Notes: a model not told the origin generated them from the letters alone. A stretch of 64,000 bases of DNA from an uncultured Bacteroidota bacterium (GCA_903851365.1 CAINOB010000002.1:12051-76050), one strand, 5' to 3'. Numbered from the stretch's first letter, positions 14,477-61,258 are shown. Program-made: numbers and translations.

Positions 14477-16360
14477 TTATTCGGCCTTAACAAACTTAAT
14501 CTTTTCGGAAAAAACTCCATCGGTATAATTCAGAATGTAAATGCCTGTTGAAAGTGAGCTGGTATTCAGAACCTCACTCATTTTTCGCAGGTTGATTGTC
14601 TGAAGTATTTTCCCGGTCAGATCCATCAGCTGAAGTTTAGAATTGGGGTTGGGATTTGATTTCAGCAAAATGTTTAAAGAATGAGACGCGGGATTTGGAT
14701 AGACTTCAATGGCCGGATAATCAGCAGGGGTATTATCTGCATGATTAGCCTCTCCCTTTTCCTGGGCCACAACAATCGGAACATATCCTATGGAATATTC
14801 GGGTGGCGGAGTGACAAAAAGTGCAGTGTCGAATGCCACCAGACTGCCACTTGACGGGGCCTTCATATAGGTTTGTTCGATGGTCCAGTTTTTATGCATG
14901 GATTCAACCAACAGCTGCAGACTGTCTTTTTTTCCTTGGGTCCAGTTAAACTGCTGAAAGACAGGTTGATCTATGAATCGATACCAAAAATAGGTAACCA
15001 TTGAATGATCACTCAGATAGGCAAAGAACGGGCCTGCCATCGGACCGGGATTTCTCCAGGAACCCTTTAACTCTGCATGATAAGGTGTGGGATTTTCGGA
15101 TGGGGCATTGAAATGCTTATCCAGAAGCCCGGTTGAAACCGGCACTTTGGAGGCTGGAATGGCGACTCTGAAATTTGCTGAGTCTTTGAAATACTCAGGA
15201 AAATTTCCCATTCCATCAGAAATATTGCCGGTCCATTTAAGGCCGAATGCATTACTCTGGAAAATTGCCGGAGTAGCAACTTCGTTTATTCCCACCACAG
15301 TTTTTCCATTCTGATCATAGGTCACCGGGTAGGTGCGCATCACAGGCTTGTAGGTTCCTGTTGCCAGAAAAGAACCGGAAGGGGCCTGTCCGCCGTTTCT
15401 CCAGGCGAGAACTGCATTATAAATTGCGCTCTTGCTGTAAAACGTCACATCTTTGGATAGAATGGTTCTGTTTAAGCTATCGACCGGAAATTGCAGTCTG
15501 GGAATTTTGTAGTAGTGGTTTTGGCTGGCATCAGTGGCGCTCAAGATTGGCACCGTATTGAACTCCATGGTACCGCCCGACAGGTTTTTGACTGAGGGAC
15601 GCGAATCCAGTCCCCGGCCATGATCGAAGGGATAATCCTTTGAGATTTTAGCCCAGGTTTCCGGCAAATAATAGGCCAGCGGGCCCTTGAAATTCTGAGC
15701 ATTCAAAAAGCAGGTCCAGCTTTTTTCGCCTACCGGATATTGTTCGGTACAGGCAGGGGTAAGAGGCAATGACATATAGCTGATCCCCAGAAGCTCTCCA
15801 TTGGGATTTCCCTGAAATGTCATTCCATCCGGAGGAATAAGTATGCGGTTTGATATTTGGGCGATGCCTAAAATACTGTCTGGCAATGGAGTGTCGCTCC
15901 AAAAGAATTGCCAGCCGGGGGTGGAAATTTCCTTAGTATAGCAGTTTGGGGTGGAATTCATTTTGAATTTTGGCGGACCGTAATGGAACTTATTGCCTGC
16001 CCAGTAGCCGGGGCCTCCTTCAACTGTCTGAAATACATCACCATAAGTGGGACCTCTTTCCGGCCAGTTATCTCTTGCGACTGTTCCAACGGGGCAGAGA
16101 GCAATAGTGGTGTTATCTGAATTATCAGGAATTATCCAACTTGAGGGCAACCCAATCTGGAATCCATCAACAGGCGTGCTTATCAGGGGCCAGATGGCCG
16201 AATAAAATCCGAATCCTTCACCATAGCTGGCAGGGGCCTGAGCGGGATAGCTGGCAATATATCCGTGAAGACCATTCTGACCAATTACAGGTGAATAACC
16301 GATCGAAATCAGGACAGTACAGAGAAGTATATATCTGGTTAACGTGCTTTTTTTGTTCAT
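14477..16360 (-). CDS. Uncharacterised secreted protein (family X, divergent member) with T9SS C-terminal sorting domain
   Basis: Signal peptide present. It shares blocks with 47330..48973 and 49008..50957 (SWTCFLNAQNFKGPLAYYLPETW; GPMAGPF..TYFWYRFIDQP; VTPPPEYSIGYVPIV). The last 77 aa (14477..14710: IEVYPNPASHSLNILL...GIYILNY...KFVKAE) are a Por-secretion-tail type CTD. Confidence 0.7.
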   Translation of the reverse strand: MNKKSTLTRYILLCTVLISIGYSPVIGQNGLHGYIASYPAQAPASYGEGFGFYSAIWPLISTPVDGFQIGLPSSWIIPDNSDNTTIALCPVGTVARDNWPERGPTYGDVFQTVEGGPGYWAGNKFHYGPPKFKMNSTPNCYTKEISTPGWQFFWSDTPLPDSILGIAQISNRILIPPDGMTFQGNPNGELLGISYMSLPLTPACTEQYPVGEKSWTCFLNAQNFKGPLAYYLPETWAKISKDYPFDHGRGLDSRPSVKNLSGGTMEFNTVPILSATDASQNHYYKIPRLQFPVDSLNRTILSKDVTFYSKSAIYNAVLAWRNGGQAPSGSFLATGTYKPVMRTYPVTYDQNGKTVVGINEVATPAIFQSNAFGLKWTGNISDGMGNFPEYFKDSANFRVAIPASKVPVSTGLLDKHFNAPSENPTPYHAELKGSWRNPGPMAGPFFAYLSDHSMVTYFWYRFIDQPVFQQFNWTQGKKDSLQLLVESMHKNWTIEQTYMKAPSSGSLVAFDTALFVTPPPEYSIGYVPIVVAQEKGEANHADNTPADYPAIEVYPNPASHSLNILLKSNPNPNSKLQLMDLTGKILQTINLRKMSEVLNTSSLSTGIYILNYTDGVFSEKIKFVKAE

Positions 16361-16361
16361 T

Positions 16362-18266
16362 TTATCTGATGACCAGCTGCCGTGTTTTAAGGAAATTTCC
16401 GGCTTTCATGGTGTAGAAATAGACGCCGGCTCCAAGGGTGCCAGTTTCCAGGGTAATAGTATGTTTTCCGGCGGGCATGGTGCCTTTGTTCAGTTCGATG
16501 ACCTTACGCCCGGTGATGTCCGTTACCTCGAAAGTCACATCAGATCCGGCAGCAAGTTCAAAGTCGATTTGGGTGCTCCCGTTGAAAGGGTTCGGGTAGT
16601 TCTGACCAAGTAATGACTGTTCTGAAATAGCCCCTGTACCGTCCTTGATATTAGCGTGATCATTCAGGTTCAGGCGGATCATCAAGTTTCTTTTTCCGAT
16701 ATAATCGCCCAGGCCGGTCTCCCAGTTTCCATTGTAAAATCCCATCGATGTTGACTCGACAAGCTTAACCGAGTTATCAGTACCGATTTCCAGACCCTTA
16801 TTACGCCGGACCATATATTCCGGATTCATGTTGTCGAAAGTTAAACCTGCATAAACCAGATCTCCCTTGTGAAGGAATTCCGATTCACCGTCCTTATCGA
16901 ATTGCAGGGTCACCCACTTGTTGAAGTCGGCCGAATCAAGCTGGATGGTTTCCGTTGACAGCAGCTCAAAAGGTGTGGGGTCAGTCTGCCCAACCGGGAC
17001 AAAATAGAGCGAGTAGCGGTAGTTGATCAGTGCATCGGCCTTTCCTCCGGCAATAAACACGGAGACCGAGCTCACTTCGCAATCATTATATATCGGGAAG
17101 ATCGATCCGGTAAAGAATCCGACGTTCGCAACGGCGGCGGCATCATACCGTTCCTTCGTGAATGACCAGCCAAGTTTGTTGATATCACCGGCTCGTGAAT
17201 AGATGCTGTCGGTCACATTAAAAAATACTTCCTTATTATTATCCGTCGGATTTTCGTCCCCGGCTTTAGCTTTGAAATTCATGGCCAGTTTGTAATGTCC
17301 GTATTCTGTTGGTGAATATCGGTCTGCAACCCTGACTGTATCGATAACCAGTGAGGAAAGATCCTTTTTCGGCGATGTCCGGTGAAACACATTGTTTCCG
17401 TTTTTGGTGATATCCAGATCCATTTGAACCTCTTCCTGGTCATATTCACCAAAATTCAGCACGGTAGTTTCGAAATTATAGAACCCGTTGTTGCCGGTCA
17501 ACTGTGATTTCGGGATGCTGGCAATCCAGGGTACTTTGGTGTTCGCGTCATTGTCATCCCATTCCGTTTTTACATAGCTTATTTTCAGATCATTGTTGTA
17601 TGCTTCTGATAAGGTAAAATCGTCGATTGCCCAATAGTATAAAGCGGAATGGAGCCAGTGCAATCTCATTTGAACGTTTGAAGCACCCGCTGCGACATCA
17701 GATATATTTACTTCCATGATGGCCGGCACTCCTGCCGGGTAGTCCAGTGGCCTGTCTTTGTGGCCGCAACCGAAATTGACGCTGTAGGAGGCTGAATGGA
17801 CCCAGTTATCCACTGAAACCTCCAGGAACATATCCACCGGGGAGGAGCCCATGAAGTGGGTTTGATACCTGACCACAACAGAGGAGTGTGCACTGCAGTT
17901 CATGGTCGGAAAGCCCACCGAGTTATCCACCGTAATCTCCGGAGCACCCGCGACCTGGAATATCTCCATGAACAGGGCGATACAGCCATTATCCTTTGTG
18001 GTAGACTGAAGCATCGGATCGTGTGTTCCTGTCCCGTCGAACCGACCTTTCCACCATACAAAATTGGTTCCCTGGTCCTTTGGATCCAGAAAATAATATC
18101 CGGCCGGCGCTGTCCAGCCTTTGGGATCGGCCGGATTTTCCCAGCCGAAGGTTTCCGAGTAGAATACTTTCCCGTCACCCTTTGTGTTGGGGGCCTGGGC
18201 TTGTGTTTCTGTAACTGCCAGCATACCTGCAAGCAATAGTAAAAAGTATAAGTTCCGCATATTCAT
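16362..18266 (-). CDS. Secreted beta-sandwich (MAM / choice-of-anchor-J-like, tentative) protein with T9SS C-terminal sorting domain
   Basis: Signal peptide present. The N-terminal region (SETFGWENPADPKGWT...YWAIDDFTLSE) resembles choice-of-anchor-J/MAM-type jellyrolls. The last ~82 aa (16362..16610: NYPNPFNGSTQIDFEL...GVYFYTMKAG...) are a T9SS CTD. There is a 1-nt gap to the next gene. Confidence 0.55.
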   Translation of the reverse strand: MNMRNLYFLLLLAGMLAVTETQAQAPNTKGDGKVFYSETFGWENPADPKGWTAPAGYYFLDPKDQGTNFVWWKGRFDGTGTHDPMLQSTTKDNGCIALFMEIFQVAGAPEITVDNSVGFPTMNCSAHSSVVVRYQTHFMGSSPVDMFLEVSVDNWVHSASYSVNFGCGHKDRPLDYPAGVPAIMEVNISDVAAGASNVQMRLHWLHSALYYWAIDDFTLSEAYNNDLKISYVKTEWDDNDANTKVPWIASIPKSQLTGNNGFYNFETTVLNFGEYDQEEVQMDLDITKNGNNVFHRTSPKKDLSSLVIDTVRVADRYSPTEYGHYKLAMNFKAKAGDENPTDNNKEVFFNVTDSIYSRAGDINKLGWSFTKERYDAAAVANVGFFTGSIFPIYNDCEVSSVSVFIAGGKADALINYRYSLYFVPVGQTDPTPFELLSTETIQLDSADFNKWVTLQFDKDGESEFLHKGDLVYAGLTFDNMNPEYMVRRNKGLEIGTDNSVKLVESTSMGFYNGNWETGLGDYIGKRNLMIRLNLNDHANIKDGTGAISEQSLLGQNYPNPFNGSTQIDFELAAGSDVTFEVTDITGRKVIELNKGTMPAGKHTITLETGTLGAGVYFYTMKAGNFLKTRQLVIR

Positions 18267-18363: not shown

Positions 18364-21300
18364 TTATCTTTCTCCCAGGGTAATTGAAATTACTTTGGCT
18401 TTACCCTCTCTCAAAATGCCTAATTTAATGGTGTCACCAGGATGGAACTTTTTGAGTGCATCAGAATATTCCGCTAATTTTTTCACGGATTCACCGTCCA
18501 CAGAGTTTATAATATCCCCCGCAAGCAGACCGGCTTTTTCACCGCAGGAGCCCTGGATGACAGAGGCAATTTTAACGCCTTCACCGGTATAGGCAAAATC
18601 AGGAACAGAGCCTGTTGAAGCCTTTCTCTCTGTTTTAGGTTTCTCTATCAAATGAGGAGCTCCCGACGGTATTGTGCCGGTAAATTCGAACGGAATGTCT
18701 CGATCAGCAAGGTATTCCGCCACCTCTTTGGCCACTGCGGCCACTTTAACCAAACCTTTGCCGTCGATCTTATCCCAGGTATCGGAAGGGCGGTGGTAAT
18801 TTTCAGTAGCTCCGGTAAACAATTGTATGGCAGGTATCCCTTTTTCGATGAAGGCTACCTGGTCGCTGGCGTCGAGTTCCTGCTGCATCACCTCACTTTT
18901 TATGCCTGTGGTGTAATCGGTTCCCATAAATACAAACTTCCACTCTTTGGCTGTATTCCCGTTCAGCACCAGCAGTTTTTTATCGAGCAGACTCCCGTCG
19001 GTATCCAGGTTAACATTGGCTATGGTAGTTCCTGAAAAATACTTCTTTGCCTGGCTCACAAAATATCGGGACCCGATCAATCCGGCCTCTTCGCCTGTGA
19101 AAGCCACAAAAATGATGGTCCTTTTCGGCTGGATGGTTTTGGCCATCGATTTGGCTATTTCAAGCAGGATGGAAACTCCGCTGGCATTATCATCGGCTCC
19201 ATGATGGATTTTACCCTCATCACCTTTGTGCACATCGGGCCAGCCCAAACCCAGGTGGTCGTAATGCGCTGAGATCACTACCGGTGAATCTTTTAGCTTT
19301 TCATCGGTGCCCTTTATTATGGCGACCACATTTTTCATTTTCACCTCGCCTTTGCCAGGTAAATTTTGGGAGAATGGCTGGAACCAGGAGTTCCCCATGG
19401 TCTCTAAACCATACTCTTTAAATTTTTCGGCGATATAGTTTGCGGCGGAATCCAGTTCAGGGGTACCCAACCCGCGACCTTTCAACTTGTCGGATGCCAA
19501 ATATTTAATGTGATCCATCATGCGCTGCTCCGAAAAAATGGGAGCCAGAGTACCCAACGGCGCTCTTTTCTGTACCATATTTACGTTTTGGGCTTTGCTG
19601 TCAAAAATTCTAATCAGCGGAGAATTCAGTACCGGCCATTCCCCTTTTGCAACATTTACCGGTTCGTCGCCTTCGAATCCCAGGTAGCTATATTTACCGT
19701 AATGCGGCAATTTTGTAATGAGGCCTGGAATAGCTGCCTTATTATCCAAAGCGATGAATGCCTGGTTTAAGTCAGCGTTTTGTGCATTATAAACAGTTAA
19801 TACAAAACTGTGATTTTCCTTTGCGGTCGCATGATTTTCATACCTAACCGAATCGCCGGTGAGTGATGAGTGGGAGCTCGCAATGGCACTGTTAATCTGG
19901 GCTGCATACTTGTTTTCAAAACCGATGATCCAGGTCGTTCTATTGGCTGGCAAGCTGGTTATTTCGTTGTCATATACAACCTCAAACTTATCATTGTCGG
20001 CAGCTTTCCACTGGCTGACAAATTCCTGATACAATTTCTTCTTGTTTTCATCAGCCTTGAAAGGCAAAACGACCAGGTTATCCTTGCTGGCCAGGATTTT
20101 CGACCAGGTAGGCGGCACCTCCATCGGATCGAGAATTCTGAAAACATCGTATTGCGGATCAACCGCCAGCTTGAGCGGTTCATTATTCAGATCAAATTCA
20201 AAAGCCTGCTTCCGCTCTTTCATGTTCACCATAAACGTTTTGGGTTCCTTCTCCGTGGCAATGACAATGGGAATATCGACCGTAAAGACATCTGCCTTCT
20301 GTTTTTGCTCGAGTATCAGTGTAACATGAAATTTATCGCCGGATTTGGCGACCCTGGCGTCATTGATGGCGATCTCCGGCGCCCCGGTGCGGGTGAGCCA
20401 TTGATTGAAGAATGGTTTTAAATCCCTGCCTGTAACCGTTTCAAATGAAATCCGGATATCATCGAACGAAGCGGTTTTAAATCTGAAGTTTTGATAAAAC
20501 AGGGCAAACCCTTTCTTGAAATTCTCCTCGCCAACGGCACGTCTCAGCATGTGCATCAGCATCATCGATTTTCCATATCCAATGGCTTCGCTGGCTGCAT
20601 CATGGCGGGATATGAATTTGTTGAGTGGAAAATCGTTGGTTGCGTCCACGACATTCGAAAATTTCTGCAGGGTGGAGCGGCGGTAGTCGTCACCCTGTTC
20701 CCGTTGTTCACTGATCAGGTGATCAGCTTCATACGCGGTTATTCCTTCGCACCAGTTTCCATTGCTGAAATCCACATAAACGCTGTTTCCCCACCAGTTA
20801 TGCAGTAATTCATGCGGATAGGAGGAATGCAAAATAAATGGGAAGCGGATAATTTTTTCGCCCAGGAGGGTGAACGAGGGCATTCCGTAGCCTGTTTCCC
20901 AAAAATTCTCGACCAATGCAAATTTCGTGTATGGATAAGGCCCGGTCAGCTTCTGGTACATATCCATGTATTGTTCGGTCACATCCAGATATTTGCCTGC
21001 CAGCGCCTCGTCGGGCGTGCGTAAGAATGCCATGGCGTCAATGCCGCAGTTCATTTTGTGCGAATACTCAGTGAATCGGGCGCCGATCAGAAAAACCTCC
21101 TCCTGCGGAGTATTGCATTTCCACGAATCGATATGCTGGTCGCCTTTTGTTATTTCGTTGGTTCGTTCGCCCTGCGAAACGGTTTTCCAGCCCGCGGGTA
21201 AAGAAGTGGTTAAACTATAAGTGACATCTTTATCAGGAAAAGAAGGAACCCAGAAGGTTGAGCCTGCGAGATATATTCCTGTTTCGCCAATAATTCCCGG

Positions 21301-21723
21301 CGATTCACTGAATCCTCTGGCATAATCTTCCGCGCTGCCGGAAAAGGCGAAATCAATTTTCCCTTCGTACCGGACAACGAAACCCACCGATCCCTTCTGC
21401 AGTTTTACTTTCCATCTATTCACCTTAATGGTGCTGCCGGTGCCGCCGCTGTCGTCGCGGTCCATGCCCACATCTTTCGCTTTTTCACCGGATGCCATTT
21501 TCTCTGCCTTGGCATTCTTCGAAAACGAAGTAGGCGTGAGCGATGCATTGAGACTGAACTCTGTTTCAAGCGACTGCAGGTTGATTATGGAATCGATTAC
21601 CGCGATATGGGCAGTCGTCGGGTTGATTTGAACGGTTAAAGTATGCTGTACCGTTTTATTTTGTTGCGTAAACCCGGCTAAAGTGGTCATTAACAGCAGG
21701 CCTGCTGCAAGGAATTTGTTCAT
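18364..21723 (-). CDS. Tri-domain secreted peptidase: M1-like gluzincin + M28 aminopeptidase + C-terminal PDZ
   Basis: HELLHNWWGN followed by E at +18 (NWCEG) is the HEXXH-X18-E gluzincin signature. Later SAHYDHLG, GADDNASGVSILLE and FVAFTGEEAGLIGSRYF are M28 motifs. The final ~85 aa (GVKIASVIQGSCGEKAGLLAGDIINSVDG...) look like a PDZ domain. Confidence 0.7.
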   Translation of the reverse strand: MNKFLAAGLLLMTTLAGFTQQNKTVQHTLTVQINPTTAHIAVIDSIINLQSLETEFSLNASLTPTSFSKNAKAEKMASGEKAKDVGMDRDDSGGTGSTIKVNRWKVKLQKGSVGFVVRYEGKIDFAFSGSAEDYARGFSESPGIIGETGIYLAGSTFWVPSFPDKDVTYSLTTSLPAGWKTVSQGERTNEITKGDQHIDSWKCNTPQEEVFLIGARFTEYSHKMNCGIDAMAFLRTPDEALAGKYLDVTEQYMDMYQKLTGPYPYTKFALVENFWETGYGMPSFTLLGEKIIRFPFILHSSYPHELLHNWWGNSVYVDFSNGNWCEGITAYEADHLISEQREQGDDYRRSTLQKFSNVVDATNDFPLNKFISRHDAASEAIGYGKSMMLMHMLRRAVGEENFKKGFALFYQNFRFKTASFDDIRISFETVTGRDLKPFFNQWLTRTGAPEIAINDARVAKSGDKFHVTLILEQKQKADVFTVDIPIVIATEKEPKTFMVNMKERKQAFEFDLNNEPLKLAVDPQYDVFRILDPMEVPPTWSKILASKDNLVVLPFKADENKKKLYQEFVSQWKAADNDKFEVVYDNEITSLPANRTTWIIGFENKYAAQINSAIASSHSSLTGDSVRYENHATAKENHSFVLTVYNAQNADLNQAFIALDNKAAIPGLITKLPHYGKYSYLGFEGDEPVNVAKGEWPVLNSPLIRIFDSKAQNVNMVQKRAPLGTLAPIFSEQRMMDHIKYLASDKLKGRGLGTPELDSAANYIAEKFKEYGLETMGNSWFQPFSQNLPGKGEVKMKNVVAIIKGTDEKLKDSPVVISAHYDHLGLGWPDVHKGDEGKIHHGADDNASGVSILLEIAKSMAKTIQPKRTIIFVAFTGEEAGLIGSRYFVSQAKKYFSGTTIANVNLDTDGSLLDKKLLVLNGNTAKEWKFVFMGTDYTTGIKSEVMQQELDASDQVAFIEKGIPAIQLFTGATENYHRPSDTWDKIDGKGLVKVAAVAKEVAEYLADRDIPFEFTGTIPSGAPHLIEKPKTERKASTGSVPDFAYTGEGVKIASVIQGSCGEKAGLLAGDIINSVDGESVKKLAEYSDALKKFHPGDTIKLGILREGKAKVISITLGER

Positions 21724-32154: not shown

Positions 32155-34491
32155 TCAGCTGAGTGGATAGGTCTTACCGGCTGCGGTGTCCAATGTCCAG
32201 CTCTTGTCGCCATAAATGACTTTGCACGGGAGGCCTGCCCCGGAATGGATCACTGCCCGGGTGAGTTGACCATTGTTCCAGCTCAGATCAACCTCGAATC
32301 CACCGCGTGCACAGAGGCCGGTAACTTTTCCGGATGGCCATGCCTTGGGCAGTGCGGGGAGCAGATGAATGCCTCCCGTGTGACTTTGCACCAGCATCTC
32401 GCAGATTCCAGCTGTCGCACCAAAATTGCCGTCGATCTGGAAGGGCGGATGGGCGTCGAACAGGTTTGGATAAACACCTGCGCCACTCTCCCCGTAAATG
32501 GTTTTCGTCCCGTGGACAACGTTCAGCAAGCTTCGCAGCATGGTGTAGGCGTGATCGCCGTCCCACAGCCGCGACCAGAAATTGATCTTCCAGGCGCGGC
32601 TCCAGCCGGTGCTTTTGTCGCCGCGGGCTTGTAAGGAAACGCGGGCAGCTTCGGCAAGTGCGGGTGTGTTTGCCCGGGTAATCTGGTGCCCGGGGTACAA
32701 CGCGAACAGATGGGAAACGTGCCGATGGTCATCTTTGGGATCGTCCTTATCGGCTTCCCACTCCTGCAGTTGTCCCCAGCGTCCGATCTTCGGCTTGAGC
32801 AGTTTGTCGCGCAGGCCAGCGATGTGATCCCGGAATTCCTTATCATCGCCGAGGACATCGGCGGCTTCAATCGTGTTGGTGAACAGGTCGTAAATGATCT
32901 CCTGATCGTAGGTCACACCTTCTTCGGCGGGGCCATGCTCGGGCGACCAGCCGTCGGGTGTGACGAGCGTGCCGTCGGGTCTCCGCTTCAGGTGATCGTC
33001 CCAGAACTGGCAAACTTCCTTTAGAACGGGATAGGCGGAGTTTCGGAGATAGTCCTGATCCCGGCCAAAGGCGAAATGTTCCCACAAATGCTGCGCATAC
33101 CAGGCGCTGGCGGGCGGGTTCCATTTCCAATACGAAACACCGCAGGCGTTGTTCATTGTCTGGACAGTCCAGCCCCTGACCTTACCGTAGTTTCTTTGCG
33201 TATTCTTCGCGCTCACCTCGCGGATACTGGTGACATAGTCGATAAGCGGTTGGTGGCATTCCGCGAGATTGGTTGGCTCGGCCGGCCAGTAGTTCATTTC
33301 CAGGTTGATGTTCGAGTGGTAGTCGCCGGCCCAGGCGGGCTCGTTGCTGTCGTTCCAGACTCCCTGGAGATTGGCTGGCAAAGATCCCGGGCGCGAACAA
33401 CTGATTAGCAGATAGCGGCCGTACTGACAGAGCAGGGCTTCAAGATTGGGATCGACCGTCGTATTTTTTACGTAGTCCTCCAGCCGCGCCAGCGTGGTCC
33501 TGTCCAGCAGGTCAGGTGCAGTGGTTCCCACATCGAGGGAAAAACGATGGAAGAGGGATTGATAATCTTTTACATGACGCGACAGTAACTCCTTCACGCT
33601 CTGACTGGCAGCGGAATCCACCCGCTTCTTGACGGCAGCATGCGGATGTTCACCCAGCCACTGCTTGTTGTGATCCTGGAGGAAGTTCGTGCCCGCCCCG
33701 AGTATCAGTGTAAGGCTGTCGCATTGGTCGAAGGCCAGATTGGTGGTGGGCACGGCAATGTCCCATTGGTTTTTGGCCGATGCCCCGTCATCTTTCGCTG
33801 CGATGGCGCCTTTTTTATTCAGCACGAGCAATTGGGCTTCATATTCAAAACCGTTCTCCAATTTGCCCACCGAGCTGATCCTATTGCCATCGGCGGCAAT
33901 CCGGGCCTGGTGCATGTCGGCAAGCTGAACGCGGCCACTATAGGCAGCGGGCTTGTTCGCAGTCAGGTGGATCACCATGACCCCGTCGGGATGACTGGCG
34001 AAGGCTGTGCGTTGATAGCGCACGCCGTTGTATTCGTAGGTCACCTGATGAACGGCGCGATCAATATCGAGCTCCTGCCGGTAATCGGTCACCTTGGAGA
34101 AATCATGCCCGAGATGGATGAAGATATCGCCAAACGCCTGATAGGAGCCCATGTTTTGGCCTTCATCACCCAGACCGTCAACGGCCATTCGATCTCCGCC
34201 CCAGAGACTGATCTCATTGAACTGGATCCGCTCGATCGCGGTGCCGCCGAAGAGCATCGCCCCCATGGGTCCATTGCCGATCGGAAAGGCTTCAGTCATC
34301 CAGGCTTCTGCCGGACGGTCAGACCATAAGCATAATTTCCCCGTTGAGTCAGCCCGGTCAGTTTTGTCCCGCATCGGGGCAGCCAGGCCAGTTAGTGGGC
34401 TAAGGCCAATAGCGGCAGTAGCCAGCGAGGATGAATACAAGAAGTGACGCCGCGAAATGGCATTCTCCGGTGTTTGTGATTTTTTAGCCAT
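32155..34491 (-). CDS. GH95 family alpha-L-fucosidase/alpha-L-galactosidase with TAT signal
   Basis: [17 protein letters not shown] is a TAT-type signal. Canonical GH95 blocks: [38 protein letters not shown] and [27 protein letters not shown]. It is markedly GC-rich, which explains the many spurious ORFs on both strands. Confidence 0.85.
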
Positions 34492-35665: not shown

Positions 35666-35707
35666 CATTAGTCATTTTCTTCGTAGTAACAGGAATAGTC
35701 AATACCT
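35666..35707. repeat. Direct repeat copy A (42 bp) flanking the hipBA cassette
   Basis: cattagtcattttcttcgtagtaacaggaatagtcaatacct matches 37309..37350 at 39 of 42 positions (hand alignment). It contains the hipA stop codon. Confidence 0.85.
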
Positions 35708-36949
35708 GAACGCTGAACTCATGATTTCTATTTCATTGCGCGATATTCCGGTTTGTCTGGCAATTTTTTCCCAATTGATAACAGACTTCTTAACCGTGGA
35801 TAGGATAGCTTCCGCCTCATTTTTGTTTAGTCTGAAATACTCAGAAACCTGGAGGGCAATACCAAAATCAAGCACTCCGCTGGTTTCGTCAATGGTAAGT
35901 GATAATTCTTCCTTGTCAATGGACGGGTTGAGGTCGAATGCGGGACTCAGCCTCCAGTTACCCTGATCAATGATGAATCCATGATTGCGTAAATGATCGT
36001 CGGTATTGGATATGGCGATATTAAAAATGATTCTTTTCCAAAGTTCATGGAGATCATCTTTGGGGTTCCCACTATGATTCTGAATAAATAGTGCAATATC
36101 AAGATATCCGGCAGGATTGTCACGGATAGTATCTTCGTTATTACCAGTAAGTGTCATAGCCGAAGCAAAGTGAATCCTCTCACCGTCCTGCCTGTCGAAT
36201 CTTTTTGTAAAGAATGTATGGAAGGCACCTGAAACTTTTTCAATTCTCGATTCAGCCATATGGATTCCTGCGGATAGAGCAAGCCGGTAAGCCAGATACT
36301 CCCACTTTGCTTTATCAATGCGATCGTTCCTTGAGGGGAACTTAGCTATCCAGGGATGACCATTTTTATCCAGGATATTGGCTTTGGGTCTGGCACCTCC
36401 CAGCGAAGATCCCGGAGCCATTAACAAAACAAGCCACTTGTTAAGGTTTTTAGTTGATTTATCAGATTCCACCAGGCCTGCAATACGCTGCAACTCGCCA
36501 ACTGAAGTCCAGGGTGGAACCGGGGAGTTCTGGTCATCACTCAAAAAGGGGCCGAGAGGATCAATTTTGTATCGTAAGGCACCCATCCTGCAGGTATCGG
36601 AAACACCAAGCAAAAAGTCAATGTCGTACAGCAAGGGAGCGATTTTACCATCTTTACTGGCTTGCAAGGCCGCCTTTCTTTTCATGAGATTTTTTCCCCA
36701 GGAATCAGGCATTGAATCGAGAAATACTCCAAAGTTTTCTTTTTTATCCGGAAACTGCGGGCCCGAAAAGAAGCCTATATCCGGATCCAAAAGACGCAGT
36801 TCCTTTCCTTTAAGCCAGCGCTTATCATATTCAAAGCTGAATGATTTACGGCCTTTGCCCTGGTGAGCCGACAATATGCCAATAAGAACCGGTTCCGGCA
36901 TCCCTAACCAATGTGCATAAACAAACAGTTCTGTTTTATCTGCTGACAT
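35699..36949 (-). CDS. hipA: HipA-family serine/threonine kinase toxin
   Basis: 416 aa with the HipA N-terminal coupling region, SLGGARPKANI and the catalytic-loop block ISNTDDHLRNHGF. It lies 2 nt downstream of an XRE-HTH gene. Confidence 0.85.
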   Translation of the reverse strand: MSADKTELFVYAHWLGMPEPVLIGILSAHQGKGRKSFSFEYDKRWLKGKELRLLDPDIGFFSGPQFPDKKENFGVFLDSMPDSWGKNLMKRKAALQASKDGKIAPLLYDIDFLLGVSDTCRMGALRYKIDPLGPFLSDDQNSPVPPWTSVGELQRIAGLVESDKSTKNLNKWLVLLMAPGSSLGGARPKANILDKNGHPWIAKFPSRNDRIDKAKWEYLAYRLALSAGIHMAESRIEKVSGAFHTFFTKRFDRQDGERIHFASAMTLTGNNEDTIRDNPAGYLDIALFIQNHSGNPKDDLHELWKRIIFNIAISNTDDHLRNHGFIIDQGNWRLSPAFDLNPSIDKEELSLTIDETSGVLDFGIALQVSEYFRLNKNEAEAILSTVKKSVINWEKIARQTGISRNEIEIMSSAFRY

Positions 36950-36951
36950 GA

Positions 36952-37248
36952 TTATTTTTTACCAAGGAGTTCAATATCCCGGAGCTTTTTTCCGAGTTCA
37001 TCATCGGCAGCCAGTTTCAGGAAATCGTCCTGTAAACCGAGTACACGCATTACATTAAATACAGCACCTACAGATACCCCCGGATTTCCTTTTTCAATCA
37101 GGTAAAGGGTATTTCTGGAGATATCGGCGCGTTCGGCAACCTGGATGGTTGTCAGTTTGCGACGTTTTCTTGCGAGCTTAATATTTTCACCAAATACTTC
37201 GAATATTCTCTGGTGTTTTGGAAATAGAACCTGTTTCTTCGAATTCAT
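36952..37248 (-). CDS. hipB: XRE-family helix-turn-helix antitoxin (HipB-like)
   Basis: HTH LTTIQVAERADISRNTLYLIEKGNPGVS. The ATG at 37248 (MNSKKQ...) is preferred over the track start 37311, which would read through the promoter-like region and repeat copy B. Confidence 0.75.
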   Translation of the reverse strand: MNSKKQVLFPKHQRIFEVFGENIKLARKRRKLTTIQVAERADISRNTLYLIEKGNPGVSVGAVFNVMRVLGLQDDFLKLAADDELGKKLRDIELLGKK

Positions 37249-37253
37249 TTTTA

Positions 37254-37302
37254 TACTATATTCTGAGCAAAAATAATGAATATGTTTGTAATATAGTACA
37301 AA
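37254..37302 (-). promoter_or_regulatory. Candidate hipBA promoter with flanking inverted repeat (possible HipB operator)
   Basis: The minus strand has TTTG (37299-37302) and TATTTTTG (37268-37275, which fits TAnnTTTG) 19 nt upstream of the hipB ATG. A 9-bp inverted repeat, TACTATATT (37254-37262) / AATATAGTA (37290-37298), brackets the -7 box. The region is AT-rich, so chance matches are possible. Confidence 0.35.
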
Positions 37303-37308
37303 ATTTTT

Positions 37309-37350
37309 CATTAGTCATTTCCTTCGTAGTAATAGGAGTAGTCAATACCT
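37309..37350. repeat. Direct repeat copy B (42 bp) flanking the hipBA cassette
   Basis: cattagtcatttccttcgtagtaataggagtagtcaatacct matches copy A (35666..35707) at 39/42. Confidence 0.85.
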
Positions 37351-42447: not shown

Positions 42448-44838
42448 TCAGGGTTTATTAAAGTTGATTTGCCAGGAGACCTCCCCATTATCCGGGCGCT
42501 CAAGGATGATTTGTACCAGCCCATCGGCGGGGTGTTTTTGAAGTTTTGCCTTTGCCCCGGAAGCTGTTACGCGGGTTGCTTTGCTGCCATTGCCGGCCAC
42601 AACGATTTTGAAAGGTTCGCCGCCGATCACCTTGGCTACGCCTGACAAACTATTTCCTTTGGCGTCCCACTTAACATTGGCCAGATCCACCCAGCCTTGA
42701 AGCACATGGCGGTTAGTGGATAAAACCTGCGGATTCGATTGAACCTTTCGGATGGAGAGCATGGCGCAATGGGTAGGCCCTAAAAGTTTCTCAATTTTTG
42801 CGGTACCGGAATACTTGCCGACTAACGAGTCCGACCAGAATTCATAAACATAATAGGATGCAGCGGGATCGAGTCCGATGGCTCCGGCAACATGTTCACC
42901 GCTGAGTGCCGCCGAAATCATATCAGTTCTGGCCGTGTCGGGATTGAACAATGCCACCTGATGCCACTCGGGCGTCAATTCGAGATCGTACACACGCGGA
43001 TTGGCAATGCCGGTAAAGGCATCCAGGGGACGTGCGCTGTGCGGCTCACGATACAGCGGATAGATGCGTGTGACATCATGGAGGATCTCCGGCGTGAACA
43101 AACGGAAAGACGTTGCGAGTTCCAGTCGCCCGCTGGTTAGAAAAATCATGGTGAGGAGCGATTGGCGTACTTTGGGCGTGCGGTTATGTACCGCTTTGCT
43201 GTCGGGGTAGTAGTTGAACACCACGCGGTTTTTATACCAGCGCAGGCCGCATGTGGTCACCATGCCGGGTACATACTCGTTCGAGTCTCCCCAAACCCGC
43301 TGCATGTCCACCAAGCCCGCGGTAACGTCCAGCATAGGCCGGCCGGTTTCCCCCAGATTACGCTCGTGTATGAAAGCATCCGGGCCCAACCCTTCGCGGC
43401 ACAGACGGAACACTTCGCGGTAGGCAAAAGCAGTAGTGGCATATTTGTTTTCGAAACCTCCCTCCGGCCGCCAGCCGGTCTCGGGGTAGTCGAATTTGAT
43501 GCCGGTCATACCGTCGTTCTTAAGCCGTTGCCAGGTCGACAGAACGTGTTTCTGAAAATCCGGATCGGTATAGTCGTAGGTTACTAACGGCTGATGATGC
43601 GGATGTTTGACTTGCAGCCGGGAAATATCGTTGAACAGCATGTGGCCGGGGAAGGCCCGGGCGTAATCGTCTGACGGCAGGCCAACCTGGAAGTAAGTGA
43701 ATGGGATGCCGCCACGCGCTTTTAGTGCTGCACACCACTTGGCAAATGTTTCATACGGGGCGACCAAATGTCCATATTTCGACCAGTGCGCATCATCCCA
43801 CCACCCCTGTTCCGTATTGCCGTCCTTATAGCAATAGGTATCCGGCTCCAGGCGGATGGCAACTTTGGTATATTTGGTAATGCCCGCCTTTTGCCCCATC
43901 TCCAGCTCTGAAATCAACGCCACGCTGTTATTGATGTCGCCGAGTCCGCTCAGCGCTCCCACCGCCCAGCCACATAATGTTGGGAAATCATAAATGTTAG
44001 GTCGTGCATTGTTTGCCACCCGCATGGCAAGGCCATAGGTTTCAAGAGCAATAAAAGGATCAGGCTGCGTGACATCAAGATAAAAGTTGTCTTCTGAAAA
44101 ATAGGTTTCCCCCGGATTCACTAAACGACCCACAGGGTCCTCAGCCCTCATATCAATTTTACCGTCACGCAGGGCAACCCATTTCCCAAACTCTTTGTTA
44201 GCCAGACCACCCCACACCAGCGACAACCGTTTCCCATCGGCAAAACACGTTAATAGCAGGCTGTTTGGACAAGCCCGGTTCAGCCCCTTCTCGATACGCG
44301 GGACATCGGCACCCGCAGCCCCGTTGAGCGTTTGCGGCACCTCCAGCAACTTTCCGGACAACACCCGTCCATGCATCATCGGCGAAGCCTTCATCAATCG
44401 GGCTCCCTGCGGCATGATATTCCGTATGCCAAAACCCATGACTACACCCCCCCTTCCATCATACACCGCAAAACTGAAGATATATACCGGGATCGACCGG
44501 GTCCCCGGATGCTCCATCTCAACTACCAAACGGTGTCCGTGGCCAAGCGCATCATTGACCTCCTCCTGTTTCCCTGTGAATCTCATACCATCGGTATTGC
44601 CCCATGAATCCGCTGACACTCCAGCCTGGTCAATAATCAATTGCCCGGTTGCCTTGTCGGTAATCGTATACATGCCATTGGACATATCGAATGCCAGGGA
44701 AACAATTTCATTGGAAAGGACTACCTGACCAGACGTTTCATCCTGATTCAATTCAATGGCAGCCATCTTTGCGGGAGCAAAAACCAAACCTATTGACAGT
44801 ATAACTGATAAAGAGAGAATTCGCCTGATGTTGATCAT
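42448..44838 (-). CDS. Putative glycoside hydrolase, alpha-galactosidase-like (clan GH-D TIM barrel), family uncertain
   Basis: The start at the ATG 44836-44838 (MINIRRILSLSVIL, signal peptide) overlaps the upstream stop by 1 nt (TAATG). The blocks FPTLCGWAV, MTGIKFDYPETGW and MQRVWGDSNE resemble the strand-end motifs carrying the nucleophile and acid/base in GH27/31/36-type barrels. Confidence 0.45.
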   Translation of the reverse strand: MINIRRILSLSVILSIGLVFAPAKMAAIELNQDETSGQVVLSNEIVSLAFDMSNGMYTITDKATGQLIIDQAGVSADSWGNTDGMRFTGKQEEVNDALGHGHRLVVEMEHPGTRSIPVYIFSFAVYDGRGGVVMGFGIRNIMPQGARLMKASPMMHGRVLSGKLLEVPQTLNGAAGADVPRIEKGLNRACPNSLLLTCFADGKRLSLVWGGLANKEFGKWVALRDGKIDMRAEDPVGRLVNPGETYFSEDNFYLDVTQPDPFIALETYGLAMRVANNARPNIYDFPTLCGWAVGALSGLGDINNSVALISELEMGQKAGITKYTKVAIRLEPDTYCYKDGNTEQGWWDDAHWSKYGHLVAPYETFAKWCAALKARGGIPFTYFQVGLPSDDYARAFPGHMLFNDISRLQVKHPHHQPLVTYDYTDPDFQKHVLSTWQRLKNDGMTGIKFDYPETGWRPEGGFENKYATTAFAYREVFRLCREGLGPDAFIHERNLGETGRPMLDVTAGLVDMQRVWGDSNEYVPGMVTTCGLRWYKNRVVFNYYPDSKAVHNRTPKVRQSLLTMIFLTSGRLELATSFRLFTPEILHDVTRIYPLYREPHSARPLDAFTGIANPRVYDLELTPEWHQVALFNPDTARTDMISAALSGEHVAGAIGLDPAASYYVYEFWSDSLVGKYSGTAKIEKLLGPTHCAMLSIRKVQSNPQVLSTNRHVLQGWVDLANVKWDAKGNSLSGVAKVIGGEPFKIVVAGNGSKATRVTASGAKAKLQKHPADGLVQIILERPDNGEVSWQINFNKP

Positions 44839-47318
44839 TATTGCTCTATGTTTTGAATATTGATAGTACCTGATTGTAAATCCTTTGCCCGGCATTGAAC
44901 GGATATCGTTCCTTTCCCTTTCGGACGGATAGTCAGCAGCAATCTTCCTTCGTAAGCTTCGCGTTTGTTTTGTTTGTACAATTCATGACTGAACTGGTTT
45001 CCCGAATCCAATCCGATCAATTCACCCGCGCCAGCTACATCAACAGTTATCTCGTTTTTTGCTAATGGACAGCGTGTGCCCTTTTCATCCTGGATCTCAA
45101 GGGTAAGAAAAACAAGTCGTTCGCTTTCCGGGCCATCGGATTTCCATTCCTCTTTTAAACCCAGTTTTTTTGGTTCACCCGCCGTTTTTAATGTATGGGT
45201 GGCGACTATCTGGTTTTTGTTAAAGGCTTTTGCAATCAGTTCACCCTGTTTATAATTAACAAGATAGATGGCCTGATAGGTATTTGGATTCACTGCCTTT
45301 TTCCCAAGGCTTTTACCGTTTTGATATAACTCAACTTTTTCAGTGTTGCTGTATACAAAAACCGTATCCACCTCCCCCGGATTAAAATTCCAGTGCGAGG
45401 CAACGTTGTAGCTGCGCCACTCGAAGTCGTCTTTTACTTTCAGGTTTACTGCGATGTGAACCATCGGTTTTTCCGACCAAAATGCCTGCCAGTAGTAATA
45501 CAAGGGTTTTTCGAAACCGGCGATATCAATCAGTCCCCATTCCCAGCCTCGACGGGGCCAGCCGAGCGCTTCTCCTAAATAATCTATCCCCACCCACAGG
45601 AACAGGCCGACAACATTTGGATTATCGCGCACAGCAAGCCAGTTTTCGAGAGTCAGGTAGTTCTCAGCGCCAAGCAGAATCCGGTTTGGATAGCGGGCAT
45701 GTTCTTCGCGATAATGCTCCTTAAAATACCGATCGGGATAATTATATCCGGCGACATCCATGGTGTCGAAAAATCCATTAGCATTTGCCCAGGGCGACCA
45801 ATCGCAAGTGGCTGTTATCATGCGGGTATTATCCTCCTCTTTTGCCCAATCGATAAGCTTTTTCAGGGTTTTGGGCCCATCAGGATATCGCTGGTCAGGC
45901 ACTTCATTTCCCACCGAATACATAAATACGGAGGGATGATTCCGATCACGCCTGACCATATCCTTCAAATCGGTTTCTGCCCATTGGTTGAAGAAAATGT
46001 GATAGGTGTATTTGTTCTTACCTGCCGGATCTTCCGTCTGGCCATAGTGCCAGGTATGGTTCCATTCATCAAAAGCTTCCGCCATCATATACATACCCTT
46101 TTCATCGCACACCTCAATAAAGGCAGGGTCAACCGGTCCGTGTGTGCGGATGGCATTGCAGCCCTGCGCCTTCAGCTTGTCAAGCCGGTATCGCCAAACG
46201 TCCTTGGGGACTGCGGTTCCAAAAGAACCGGCATCTTTGTGGAGGCATACCCCTTTAATAATCACTTTCTCTCCGTTTACAACCAGTCCCTGATCTTTAT
46301 TGAAAACAATAGTACGAATTCCCACTTTCTGCTGCTCAGTATCGACCAGGCGGTTCTCAATCCACAACTGAAGCTCCAGCGTGTAGAGATATGGGTTTTT
46401 ATCCGACCAAAGCACTGGATTTTTAGCTTCAATATTCAGGGTGGATTTTACCGATGTGTAATCGCTAAGGTCACAGCTATCGATGGCTTTAGTAAAAATG
46501 CCACCATCCCTGCCTTTCAGAAGTGCAACTATCCGGGCTTTTTTCAGCACTTTTTTCCATTCTTCAGGAAACCGCTGGAAATTAACTTTCATGCTCTCGG
46601 TATAATTGTTGGAAATTACCTCGCAATCTACCTTGAGCCTGGCAACGTTGCCATTTGCTGAAATGGTCCTGAAAAAGGTGCCGAAGGATTTAAAATGCTG
46701 CTGCCCGGTAATAAAAAGACGGACGTTCCGGTTAATTCCGGAACCGGTGTACCATCTGCAATTATTAATCAATGAATTATCCACCTTAACGGCAATCACG
46801 TTGGTTTTCCCATCATATTTTAAAAAGGGTGTTAAATCGTATTCAAAAGTGCTGAATCCATACGGACGGTTTCCCAGGTATATGCCATTCAGATATACCG
46901 ATGAGTTCATATAAACCCCATCAAACCTGATTTTAATCCGTTTCCCTTTTGAACCCTCCGGTACTACAAAATGCTTACGATAACAACCGATCCCATAAGG
47001 CAGATAGCCGCCTGATGCACCGCTTGGGTTTGCCTCCGCAAATTGTCCTTCTACCGACCAATCGTGAGGAACATCCAAACGACGCCATCCGGAATCATCA
47101 AACTCAGGGACGTAAAAACCAGGGGATTCGCCTAAATAAAATAGCCAGTCTGCATTAAAGTTCAGCTGCACATCCATCACGGGTTCAGCAATCACCTCTT
47201 TACCAGCAATTTTATTGCTCTTATCACGGAAAACATTTTCATCAACCTGTGAAAAAGCACCCTGGCAGATAAAAGACAGAAGTCCGAACAGCAAAATTAA
47301 TTTACGTGACCAGTTCAT
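44838..47318 (-). CDS. GH2 family glycoside hydrolase (beta-galactosidase/beta-glucuronidase type), secreted
   Basis: Signal peptide present. GH2 blocks WRRLDVPHDWS, VYLNG, IRTHGP and NHPSVFMYSVGNEV (acid/base Glu context). Confidence 0.85.
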   Translation of the reverse strand: MNWSRKLILLFGLLSFICQGAFSQVDENVFRDKSNKIAGKEVIAEPVMDVQLNFNADWLFYLGESPGFYVPEFDDSGWRRLDVPHDWSVEGQFAEANPSGASGGYLPYGIGCYRKHFVVPEGSKGKRIKIRFDGVYMNSSVYLNGIYLGNRPYGFSTFEYDLTPFLKYDGKTNVIAVKVDNSLINNCRWYTGSGINRNVRLFITGQQHFKSFGTFFRTISANGNVARLKVDCEVISNNYTESMKVNFQRFPEEWKKVLKKARIVALLKGRDGGIFTKAIDSCDLSDYTSVKSTLNIEAKNPVLWSDKNPYLYTLELQLWIENRLVDTEQQKVGIRTIVFNKDQGLVVNGEKVIIKGVCLHKDAGSFGTAVPKDVWRYRLDKLKAQGCNAIRTHGPVDPAFIEVCDEKGMYMMAEAFDEWNHTWHYGQTEDPAGKNKYTYHIFFNQWAETDLKDMVRRDRNHPSVFMYSVGNEVPDQRYPDGPKTLKKLIDWAKEEDNTRMITATCDWSPWANANGFFDTMDVAGYNYPDRYFKEHYREEHARYPNRILLGAENYLTLENWLAVRDNPNVVGLFLWVGIDYLGEALGWPRRGWEWGLIDIAGFEKPLYYYWQAFWSEKPMVHIAVNLKVKDDFEWRSYNVASHWNFNPGEVDTVFVYSNTEKVELYQNGKSLGKKAVNPNTYQAIYLVNYKQGELIAKAFNKNQIVATHTLKTAGEPKKLGLKEEWKSDGPESERLVFLTLEIQDEKGTRCPLAKNEITVDVAGAGELIGLDSGNQFSHELYKQNKREAYEGRLLLTIRPKGKGTISVQCRAKDLQSGTINIQNIEQ

Positions 47319-52981: not shown

Positions 52982-53152
52982 AATTGGTTGATTACCGTGC
53001 TAAAGGTAGCAGGCAAATTGGAAATAGATGTGTATCTGATTGTCAGGACCAGGCACTAACTTGGCAGGTCTATTTGTCAAGACCCGCTTAGGCTGCATGT
53101 TTTTGTATATCCGGTCTTTAGTTATATTTAATACTTGAATCAGACAGATAAA

Positions 53153-59300: not shown

Positions 59301-59517
59301 CAACAGGATGGCCTTTCTGGTCCAGTACCATGCTTAAAAGTGAAGCAGTCTTTGGATCGTCACCAATAGCCTTAAATGTGCTGAGGTGGGCTGAGCCCTG
59401 CATGTTCGACTGTCCGGCCATGATATACACTTTCAGGGGCTTCCCGACAGCCATCGCCGTGTTGCAAACTACCATTGCCATGACCGCAGTCATCATTATT
59501 CTTGCTATTGATTTCAT
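56377..59517 (-). CDS. Tri-domain secreted protein: SASA-type esterase + unrecognised ~400-aa central domain + DUF1080 (3-keto-disaccharide-hydrolase-like) domain
   Basis: aa ~25-390 are SASA-like (VYIMAGQSNMQG, VWFQGWND). I do not recognise aa ~395-800. aa ~835-1046 fit DUF1080 (WIASGDSFTVKPG..., NSGIYL..YEIQVL, ...VSYRNIWIRKL). Confidence 0.7.
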   Translation of the reverse strand: MKSIARIMMTAVMAMVVCNTAMAVGKPLKVYIMAGQSNMQGSAHLSTFKAIGDDPKTASLLSMVLDQKGHPVVCDHSWITYFTQQDERDTVLQGKVKVGYGFDHEKIGPEYAFGLYMDKAHDEPVLIIKTAWGGKSLAVDFRPPSAGPYEPSPKEKAQGNAPSKEAVGHYYREMIRDIRATLNSAKSISKIVPGYDPAQGYELAGFVWFQGWNDMCNRYYINQYTENMIHFISDVRKEFDKPHLPFIVGILGVYGTDPDSRKFDKTLPVSDFRKTQFAAVEQYDSKVAEPYRGNVKAVDSGPFYELALSDIYWKQRLTNEWKWQVKQGKMTQEEARKQREKYGFTKNGLTRKEKAIWKRGASNAEYHYLGSGKTFVRLGKAFAETMLGMEKETENQFLGHRYFTFNTVVRVNQIETSREVTAGEDESSIHSSEGARIFRETVEKGWPGARITWAFSWLALKDEHPAYRDLKKLIVSYHEKFGDEITFIPGGYFANMYNTREQVNRDLHDGLQMVSEMVGGGYRPLSVIAGFLSAENLRYLADVEGIHVCQGNIWSQYAIDNGDGDGSISYPYYPSKEHFLKPAQGKDDLIDCVNLDGWTMDFLSARYPGGRTIDGEWCGSRQGVGPIETVIRLGTERGTQEMLAVTAAHFDKGFEINNFAWVTCTWELGLVEAHKIYGYKGRNGMEGMLIWFSEMRRRWPDAQCITMGEFGMLWREQYKNNNNLNYQFVQRGTGVCGSEPELEIQWFMNKDFRLAILQDWQNNTPGKVIDFTRYDLKAQEPADPEPGKHSRNWSLMNRLNQKGIREQDKPIDINLLNKEEKTLISKWYPDLIEPSIVTPGKNGAPPSDAIILFDKDTLINFVSAKTGGAPEWIASGDSFTVKPGTKDIITKQKFRDCQLHVEWKAAMEDVLKGKTGQSCSNSGIYLMSKYEIQVLNSYHNKTYPTGQAAAFYGNFPPLVNASLEPDQWQVYDIIFMAPKFNENKELIEPGSFTVFHNGVLVQNHVEVKEPTTSSNREFSLSETELPLMLQDHNSAVSYRNIWIRKL

Positions 59518-59521
59518 CTTT

Positions 59522-61252: not shown

Positions 61253-61258
61253 GACTAT

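Follow-up and report, generated by a model that had tools for sequence, protein, structure and literature searches.

An unnamed protein family shared by two glycosidase gene clusters of an uncultured Bacteroidota bacterium

Two pairings with family X in one window

The stretch of DNA analysed here (hereafter the window; 64,000 nucleotides, CAINOB010000002.1:12051-76050 of assembly GCA_903851365.1, from an uncultured Bacteroidota bacterium) carries two gene clusters, A and B, in each of which the gene for a secreted protein directly precedes a gene of an unnamed family that we call family X, with genes for glycoside hydrolases (GHs) further downstream. All genes of the two pairings lie on the minus strand, at the coordinates given in the original prediction that had drawn attention to them, and re-derivation of the open reading frames (ORFs) returns the gene orders and spacings reported there for both clusters.

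Cluster A begins with Y (18266-16362, minus strand), a secreted protein of 634 residues whose residues 557-633 form a type-A tail of the type IX secretion system (T9SS). It is followed on the same strand by XA (16360-14477; 627 residues), which is composed of a signal peptide, a core of ~520 residues, and a T9SS tail at residues 550-627 (nucleotides 14477-14713), by a GH95-like protein (14447-12180; 755 residues, with a weak TAT-like signal match), and by a protein of the GH115 alpha-glucuronidase family (12170-9279; 963 residues), which is encoded by the last gene of the cluster. The gaps are 1 nucleotide between Y and XA (TAAaATG), 29 nucleotides between XA and the GH95-like gene, and 9 nucleotides between the GH95-like and GH115 genes. 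A gene for an unusual fusion of M1 and M28 peptidase domains with a PDZ domain (18364-21723, minus strand; 1119 residues; Pfam matches) lies 97 nucleotides upstream of Y on the same strand, and may or may not belong to the Y transcript.

The GH115 protein matches Glyco_hydro_115 at 1.9e-126 (422.5 bits) and GH115_C at 7e-48 (163.1 bits). The GH95-like protein matches Glyco_hydro_95_cat at 9.8e-25 (87.8 bits) over only model positions 61-330 of 408, and Glyco_hydro_95_C at 1.2e-6; it is 22% identical to the bona fide GH95 of the window (32155-34491), which scores 537 bits, and 82% identical to its orthologue in one of the loci compared below (L169). It probably represents a distinct (alpha/alpha)6 subfamily.

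Cluster B, also on the minus strand, begins with LamG675 (52981-50954), a secreted protein of 675 residues with a Laminin_G_3 domain at residues 83-240 and no T9SS tail. Two family-X paralogues follow, XB1 (50957-49008; 649 residues), which has a T9SS tail, and XB2 (48973-47330 in an ORF that opens at 49051; 547 residues), which has none. The remaining genes encode a GH2 glycosidase (47318-44838; 826 residues), a protein of 815 residues without a Pfam or NCBIfam match (44895-42448), a SASA-type carbohydrate esterase with a GH2_N-like domain (42445-40433; 670 residues), and a sulfatase (40436-38907; 509 residues), the last clear member of the cluster. LamG675 and XB1 overlap by ATGA, or are separated by 11 nucleotides if XB1 starts, as its homologues do, at the second ATG; judging from the homologue starts, the start may be that ATG, at 50942. 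For XB2, Met 27 of the ORF (nucleotide 48973), 34 nucleotides after XB1, is the probable start, since homologues start at the equivalent Met. The tight spacing of the genes makes co-transcription within each cluster likely. Scans of cluster A for sigma-70 promoters and terminators gave counts at chance level, which were not used.

The secreted proteins at the head of the two clusters are unrelated, as had been proposed: Y and LamG675 give a BLASTP E-value of 0.86, and hhalign aligns their signal peptides only. Hidden homology among Y, LamG675, and X was likewise rejected by hhalign, the similarity of Y to X being limited to the T9SS tail. Scans with family models identify no SusC/SusD-like gene among the large ORFs of the window, in agreement with the original prediction, and no component of the T9SS machinery was seen within the 64 kb.

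The original prediction had read the two occurrences as one conserved two-gene architecture. Two occurrences in one window prove nothing alone, and the single architecture does not hold: the partners are unrelated, one is tailed and the other is not, and paralogues of Y occur in contexts free of X. What is conserved is family X itself and not a module of partner plus X, and the window holds two separate, lineage-limited pairings.

Spread, export signals, and predicted fold of family X

XA is 35% identical to XB1 (BLASTP, E 9e-120) and 31% identical to XB2 (E 3e-76), and the three paralogues of the window are 31-36% identical to one another, indicating that family X is real, as first suggested. 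Homologue searches returned 1965 and 3431 matches. With a profile that excluded the tail, 1451 clusters at 50% identity were recovered (E ≤ 1e-3), 475 of which reach E ≤ 1e-30. At least 593 genomic loci encode X; they belong to Bacteroidota, Planctomycetota/Phycisphaerae, Verrucomicrobiota, Lentisphaerae, Myxococcota, Aminicenantes, and others, and the family is abundant in Planctomycetota and Verrucomicrobiota. Every source name of a member is either "hypothetical protein" or one that refers to the tail only, and those of members from cultured strains are all "hypothetical protein". Beyond the T9SS tails, X matches nothing in Pfam (E ≤ 5) or NCBIfam at lax thresholds, and sequence and profile searches of the PDB return tail matches only. 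Literature searches on DUF3863, on glutamic peptidases in polysaccharide loci, and on similar loci found nothing on family X.

Family members from different Bacteroidota orders share 70-80% identity, and those from different phyla 50-60%. Residues E114, K131, D178, D252, E266, D451, and Q465 and several tryptophans, W215 and W459 included, are invariant even in divergent fusion proteins. Conservation of this kind is enzyme-like.

The T9SS tails score above the 27-bit cut-off of Pfam Por_Secre_tail in Y (41.1 bits), XA (45.1 bits), and XB1 (47.3 bits), with TIGR04183 also matched. XB2 and LamG675 have no match, and in the whole window only Y, XA, and XB1 are tailed. By inspection, XA, XB1, and their homologues have hydrophobic N-terminal signal peptides of the ordinary, cleaved kind, with ...GQ or ...AQ as the last residues. 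Lipoboxes are rare in the family (4 of 120 B-type and 19 of 120 A-type members), and a lipoprotein reading of tail-less X was ruled out by their small number. XB2 is predicted to be periplasmic because it has an ordinary signal peptide and no T9SS tail.

The tail itself is not a general property of the family. It is present on 8 of the 120 best B-type matches, and the tailed A-type members are confined to Bacteroidota. The tails of XA and XB1 (nucleotides 14477-14713 and 49008-49244) are 60% identical (71% at the DNA level), whereas the cores are 36% identical. Tails of the XB1 type share 51-81% identity with the XA-type tails of their clade, as alike as those XA tails are to one another, whereas XA tails of other lineages are only ~25% identical. 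On this evidence, the T9SS tail has very probably been copied between X paralogues within the clade, with XA-type tails as the apparent source of the XB1 tail. T9SS is a system of Bacteroidota, and the other phyla rich in X are not known to use it. Export of XA, XB1, and Y by T9SS is plausible in this lineage, on the evidence of the tails, but as a local add-on.

An AlphaFold model of XA residues 24-545, computed from an alignment of 123 sequences, is almost all beta and has a predicted local distance difference test (pLDDT) score of 90.9 and a predicted TM-score of 0.92. An earlier model from 24 sequences (pLDDT 65.6), for which the fold search matched tail-like folds only, was discarded. In a Foldseek search of the PDB, the sole high-probability matches (~1.0) among the 50 matches listed are glutamic peptidases (E 2e-5 to 4e-4), namely neprosin (7zvb, 7zva, and 9qr8) and scytalidoglutamic peptidase (2ifr and 1s2b). 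The weaker matches include laminin LG domains, botulinum-toxin binding domains, and the NanC lectin domain. On the basis of the model, X is predicted to be an enlarged concanavalin-type two-sheet beta-sandwich with long insertions and no close solved relative.

Beta-sandwiches with catalytic carboxylates on the strands of the concave sheet are found in GH16, GH7, GH12, and polysaccharide lyase enzymes of the PL7 type, which belong to the concanavalin-like superfamily and are commonly fused to carbohydrate-binding modules. Membership of X in any of these groups is unsupported, as none of them appears among the 50 Foldseek matches listed or in the Pfam scans; X resembles them in general kind only.

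The fold matches raise the possibility that X is a glutamic-class, endopeptidase-like protein that cuts the heavily glycosylated, Pro/Hyp-rich backbones of plant or algal wall glycoproteins while neighbouring glycosidases strip the glycans. Neprosin and the eqolisins (family G1) form beta-sandwiches of 7+8 and 7+7 strands that have a Glu-Glu or Gln-Glu dyad (PMC9343461). The model of X appears to be of this fold class, an antiparallel two-sheet beta-sandwich, and its invariant Glu and Gln residues (E114, E266, and Q465 are among the invariant positions) are placed on predicted strands. In addition, proline-specific peptidases adjoin X in some loci (M24 in L008 and L171; DPP-IV/S9 in L087 and for 3 of the 30 neighbours scanned upstream), and, judging from the known activities of their families, GH127 and GH27 neighbours would fit the removal of Hyp-arabinosides and Ser-galactosides, respectively. 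However, the structural matches are weak, with low TM-scores (0.46-0.55 for the target and 0.21-0.30 for the query) and root-mean-square deviations of 9-13 Å. At ~520 residues with large insertions, X is twice the size of these peptidases (~200-260 residues), shows no pro-domain, and has no sequence or profile similarity to them, matching the Pfam model of neither peptidase family. Its fusions are to carbohydrate-binding modules and an esterase, not to peptidase-associated domains, and sulfatases and esterases dominate its carbohydrate-related context. We therefore regard a peptidase role as quite improbable.

Partners and neighbours of family X

Gene neighbourhoods were compared in 160 loci (L numbers designate these and other loci), comprising the 80 best species-genome loci by similarity to XA and the 80 best metagenome loci by similarity to XB1. 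Neighbouring genes were taken by a longest-ORF heuristic and compared with the window proteins by BLAST, and near-duplicate loci were dereplicated at 90% identity. The 160 loci contain 179 X genes, in 135 clusters at 90% identity.

The body of Y (555 residues) has no counterpart among Pfam models up to E 5 or among NCBIfam models up to E 10, and its original description as a choice-of-anchor-J-like beta-sandwich thus finds no support. All 268 homologues detected have T9SS tails, and the named ones come only from metagenome-assembled genomes (MAGs) of Bacteroidota (Bacteroidales, Bacteroidia, Bacteroidota, and Porphyromonadaceae). Y and XA form a real, tight gene pair that is limited to one narrow clade of Bacteroidales. 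The two genes are adjacent in five other contigs (L006, L007, L169, L170, and L171), and their spacing is 1-38 nucleotides across six contigs in which the flanking genes have been reshuffled. Of four Y orthologues looked up (78-82% identical), three precede XA by 28-38 nucleotides (L169, L170, and L171), and the fourth (L172) does not. Genome OW818688.1 has four copies of Y, of which only the orthologue (80% identical) adjoins an XA orthologue, 28 nucleotides upstream of it; the others follow GH127 and phosphoesterase genes, follow M1/M24 peptidase genes (L003), or stand alone. XA orthologues also occur without Y, in L005 (82% identical) and in L008 (67% identical), where a gene for an M24 Xaa-Pro aminopeptidase lies 15 nucleotides upstream. 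Because the M1 + M28 + PDZ gene precedes Y in the window and M1/M24 genes precede the Y paralogue in L003, Y may have as close a link to peptidases as to X. Over the whole sample, Y is directly upstream of X in 2 of 125 dereplicated clusters.

The genes around the pair vary. They encode a 664/665-residue protein, a SASA esterase, and GH106 in L001, the 664-residue protein and GH95 in L170, and a Y-like protein and M24 in L171. The 664/665-residue protein, which has no Pfam match, directly follows XA in L001/L006 (11910-13907) and L170 (11645-13639) and has no counterpart in the window. In contig Ga0265292_1000158, orthologues of the GH95-like and GH115 genes precede Y-XA, which is followed by a SusC-like gene. 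A-type and B-type clusters are contiguous, over ~35 kb, in Ga0265292_1000158 (L089 + L169) and in OW818688.1 (L001 + L086).

LamG675 is the second partner. Its Laminin_G_3 domain (PF13385; residues 83-240) scores 73 bits against a cut-off of 27.6. The remaining ~430 residues are unannotated, having no Pfam or NCBIfam match even at lax thresholds, and include a highly conserved stretch of ~400 residues (residues ~260-600) in which W, D, E, H, R, and C are invariant at very many positions. A 1653-residue protein of OW818688.1 joins a LamG675-like part to GH63-like and DUF3863/4 domains.

Homologues of LamG675 (77-83% identical) lie directly upstream of B-type X in L085/L089, in L071, and in Ginsengibacter hankyongi. 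The gene order is LamG675-XB1-XB2-GH127-like in L085/L089, from a close relative, and SusC-SusD-GH127-GH106-LamG675-X-DUF3863/4-GH20-GH63-like-sulfatase in G. hankyongi, a cultured member of the Chitinophagaceae. LamG675 likewise accompanies X in MAGs of Aminicenantes, Planctomycetota, and others. It is directly upstream of X on the same strand in 12 of 125 dereplicated clusters and directly downstream in 5 of 122; before dereplication, the 18 upstream cases compare with 9.6 expected if the genes were placed at random in these loci. In the B-ranked set, 30 of 99 X genes have LamG675 within ±3 genes. A first tally based on Pfam, in which a LamG gene was never seen upstream, was overturned by BLAST with LamG675 itself, which found cases such as L071. 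LamG675 is therefore a frequent, preferentially upstream, and optional companion of X, across Bacteroidota orders.

These counts bear on the possibility that the repetition in the window is coincidental: X would simply lie in clusters for carbohydrate-active enzymes (CAZymes), which are rich in beta-sandwich proteins, and neither Y nor LamG675 would work with X. The absence of homology between the partners, the Y paralogues without X, the XA orthologues without Y, and the low share of clusters with LamG675 at either side would all be expected in that case. It would not account for the short Y-XA spacing kept in six contigs despite reshuffled flanks, for the presence of LamG675 near almost a third of the B-ranked X genes and its position immediately upstream about twice as often as random placement predicts, or for the existence of proteins in which Laminin_G_3 is fused to X. 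We consider coincidence rather unlikely. The synteny proposed originally is thus present, tight for Y-XA within its clade and extending for LamG675-X from Bacteroidales-like MAGs to Ginsengibacter, but it is lineage-limited in both cases, and the neighbourhood statistics show the same division, an upstream excess for LamG675 and a partner directly upstream in only a small minority of clusters. Nor does a pair always head the glycosidase genes, as the orders in Ga0265292_1000158 (GH95-like and GH115 upstream) and in G. hankyongi (LamG675-X in mid-locus) demonstrate.

The original prediction had further suggested that the module could be a T9SS-displayed substitute for the usual surface glycan-binding components. 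In this explanation, X and its upstream jellyroll partner would form a non-catalytic unit that binds or presents glycans, in place of SusD or a surface glycan-binding protein, in loci without SusC/SusD. The tails on XA, XB1, and Y, the lack of a SusC/SusD pair in the window, the lectin-like fold of X with its weaker matches to laminin LG, botulinum-toxin binding, and NanC lectin domains, and the synteny of both pairs in some relatives are consistent with this. However, X occurs inside the canonical SusC-SusD locus of G. hankyongi and beside SusC/SusD-like genes in other relatives, and it is itself fused to ricin-type and F5/8 type C modules and to an esterase. Surface glycan-binding proteins are, in addition, usually far less conserved than X is across orders. 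Since most X proteins have no upstream partner, no T9SS tail, and an ordinary signal peptide that is cleaved and not of the lipoprotein type, and since X is abundant in other phyla, a T9SS substitute for Sus would be at most a local adaptation. A binding unit of this kind is, in our view, unlikely.

The wider neighbourhood of X is rich in carbohydrate-related genes. Upstream on the same strand, the A-ranked set (n = 45) has mainly sulfatases (7), GH27 with NPCBM (5), SASA esterases (4), GH95 (2), and RGL11 (2), and the dereplicated B-ranked set (n = 30) has Laminin_G_3 proteins (9), SASA esterases (7), DPP-IV/S9 peptidases (3), and GH2 (2). The main families downstream on the same strand are Laminin_G_3 proteins (3), lambda-carrageenases (2), sulfatases (2), SASA esterases (2), and GH88 (1) in the A-ranked set (n = 27), and sulfatases (6), SASA esterases (6), Laminin_G_3 proteins (4), GH27 with NPCBM (3), and GH127 (3) in the dereplicated B-ranked set (n = 39). 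Within ±3 genes of B-type X (n = 99, by BLAST) are another X (28), DUF3863/4 (26), sulfatases (22), and GH106 (14).

X is also found in fusion with other domains. In 48 long members, Pfam identifies SASA (6), a T9SS tail (6), ricin-type lectin (5), Laminin_G_3 (4), F5/8 type C (2), and a GH29 fucosidase (1), and many long members also have Ig, fn3, or PKD spacers. The fusions to carbohydrate-binding modules and to a carbohydrate esterase indicate that X behaves like a catalytic CAZyme module.

Some of the families that accompany X elsewhere form a third cluster in the window (56377-62623, minus strand), which encodes a SASA-DUF3863-DUF3864-3keto-disaccharide-hydrolase protein, a GH127-like protein, and a GFO/IDH/MocA oxidoreductase (Pfam). 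DUF3863/4 is found near 26 of the 99 B-type X genes and GH127-like near 7. The first protein (56377-59517, minus strand) is composed of four domains, a SASA esterase, DUF3863, DUF3864, and a 3-keto-disaccharide-hydrolase-like domain; its DUF3863/4 relatives are among the commonest neighbours of X, and its SASA part resembles the SASA domains that are fused to X elsewhere. Of the 99 B-type X genes, 8 have a homologue of the 815-residue protein of cluster B (42448-44895) no more than three genes away, and further homologues occur in L170, L171, and L172. This protein represents a second unnamed family of X-bearing loci.

Directly upstream of cluster B, and divergent from it, lies a gene for a GH78 alpha-L-rhamnosidase (53135-54431, plus strand) that is split over two frames. 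Residues 1-203 and 247-477 of its orthologue in L085 align in frames 2 and 3, respectively, which points to a frameshift pseudogene or an assembly error. Clusters A and B are ~20 kb apart in the window, and between them are genes for a peptidase, GH106, a BNR/sortilin protein, and GH95, as well as housekeeping genes. The region between the two clusters also contains a toxin-antitoxin pair of a hipB-like helix-turn-helix protein and HipA (35699-37311, minus strand). Orthologues of this pair (95% and 82% identical) lie directly upstream of Y-XA in OW818688.1 (L001), suggesting that the clusters have been rearranged around it.

A proposed role for family X

Taken at even chances, X would be a catalytic carbohydrate-active module, a GH or a lyase, of an undescribed family, with XA and XB1 acting outside the cell and XB2 in the periplasm, as predicted from sequence and from the modelled fold. 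XA and XB1 would cross the inner membrane via Sec and the outer membrane via T9SS and attack a polymer at or beyond the cell surface, with Y exported alongside XA. The likely substrate would be an acetylated, often sulfated glycan with rhamnose, fucose, arabinose, or uronate. XB2 would work in the periplasm together with the exo-acting GH95-like, GH115, and GH2 enzymes, the SASA esterase, and the sulfatase, which would finish the fragments.

Several points weigh against this proposal, and X may instead be a highly conserved binding protein. X cannot be linked to any CAZy-type Pfam family by sequence or profile; its best structural matches, weak as they are, are peptidases and not glycosidases; genes for peptidases (M24, DPP-IV/S9, M60, M64, M66, and M1/M28) recur near it; and gene spacing is the one line of evidence for co-transcription. 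The more specific proposal, to which we give somewhat less than an even chance, is that X is a new, widespread CAZyme family with a scaffold nearest to that of glutamic peptidases, which works with SASA deacetylases and sulfatases on complex algal or plant glycans or glycoproteins and has been retargeted to the surface in one clade of Bacteroidales by the addition of a T9SS tail and its copying from one paralogue to another.

T9SS-exported CAZymes without SusC/SusD loci are known from 'Candidatus Paraporphyromonas polyenzymogenes' (PMC5831590), and the general idea of the original prediction is therefore not new. As in that organism, secreted proteins with type-A tails are encoded beside GHs without a SusC/SusD pair in the window. 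The cargo there, however, consists of recognisable multi-modular GHs, whereas only X and Y are tailed in the window and neither belongs to a known family; and unlike there, relatives of the window genes occur in or beside SusC/SusD loci. With Sus-like polysaccharide utilization loci, the clusters share a layout in which genes for exo-glycosidases, esterases, and sulfatases come after that for a secreted or surface protein, and in Ginsengibacter LamG675-X lies downstream of SusC-SusD-GH127-GH106. They differ from such loci in that the window has no SusC/SusD pair and in that the signal peptide of X is of the cleaved, not the lipoprotein, type.

The two-gene module as first framed matters less than family X. 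The new element is this family, which is large, conserved, and unnamed, has no solved relative, and is genomically tied to deacetylation, desulfation, and exo-glycosidase steps. The glycan loci of Bacteroidota and of Planctomycetota-Verrucomicrobiota drive the turnover of algal and plant polysaccharides, and many conserved genes in these loci are blank. Thousands of members, enzyme-like conservation, a confident model, and genomic and fusion links to esterases, sulfatases, and exo-glycosidases make family X a strong choice for further study, and the tailed and tail-less paralogues in the window offer a natural pair for the division of work between cell surface and periplasm. If X is a new glycosidase, lyase, or glycoprotein-specific peptidase, it would supply a step still missing from the degradation of acetylated, sulfated glycans, and the annotation of many loci could be revised.

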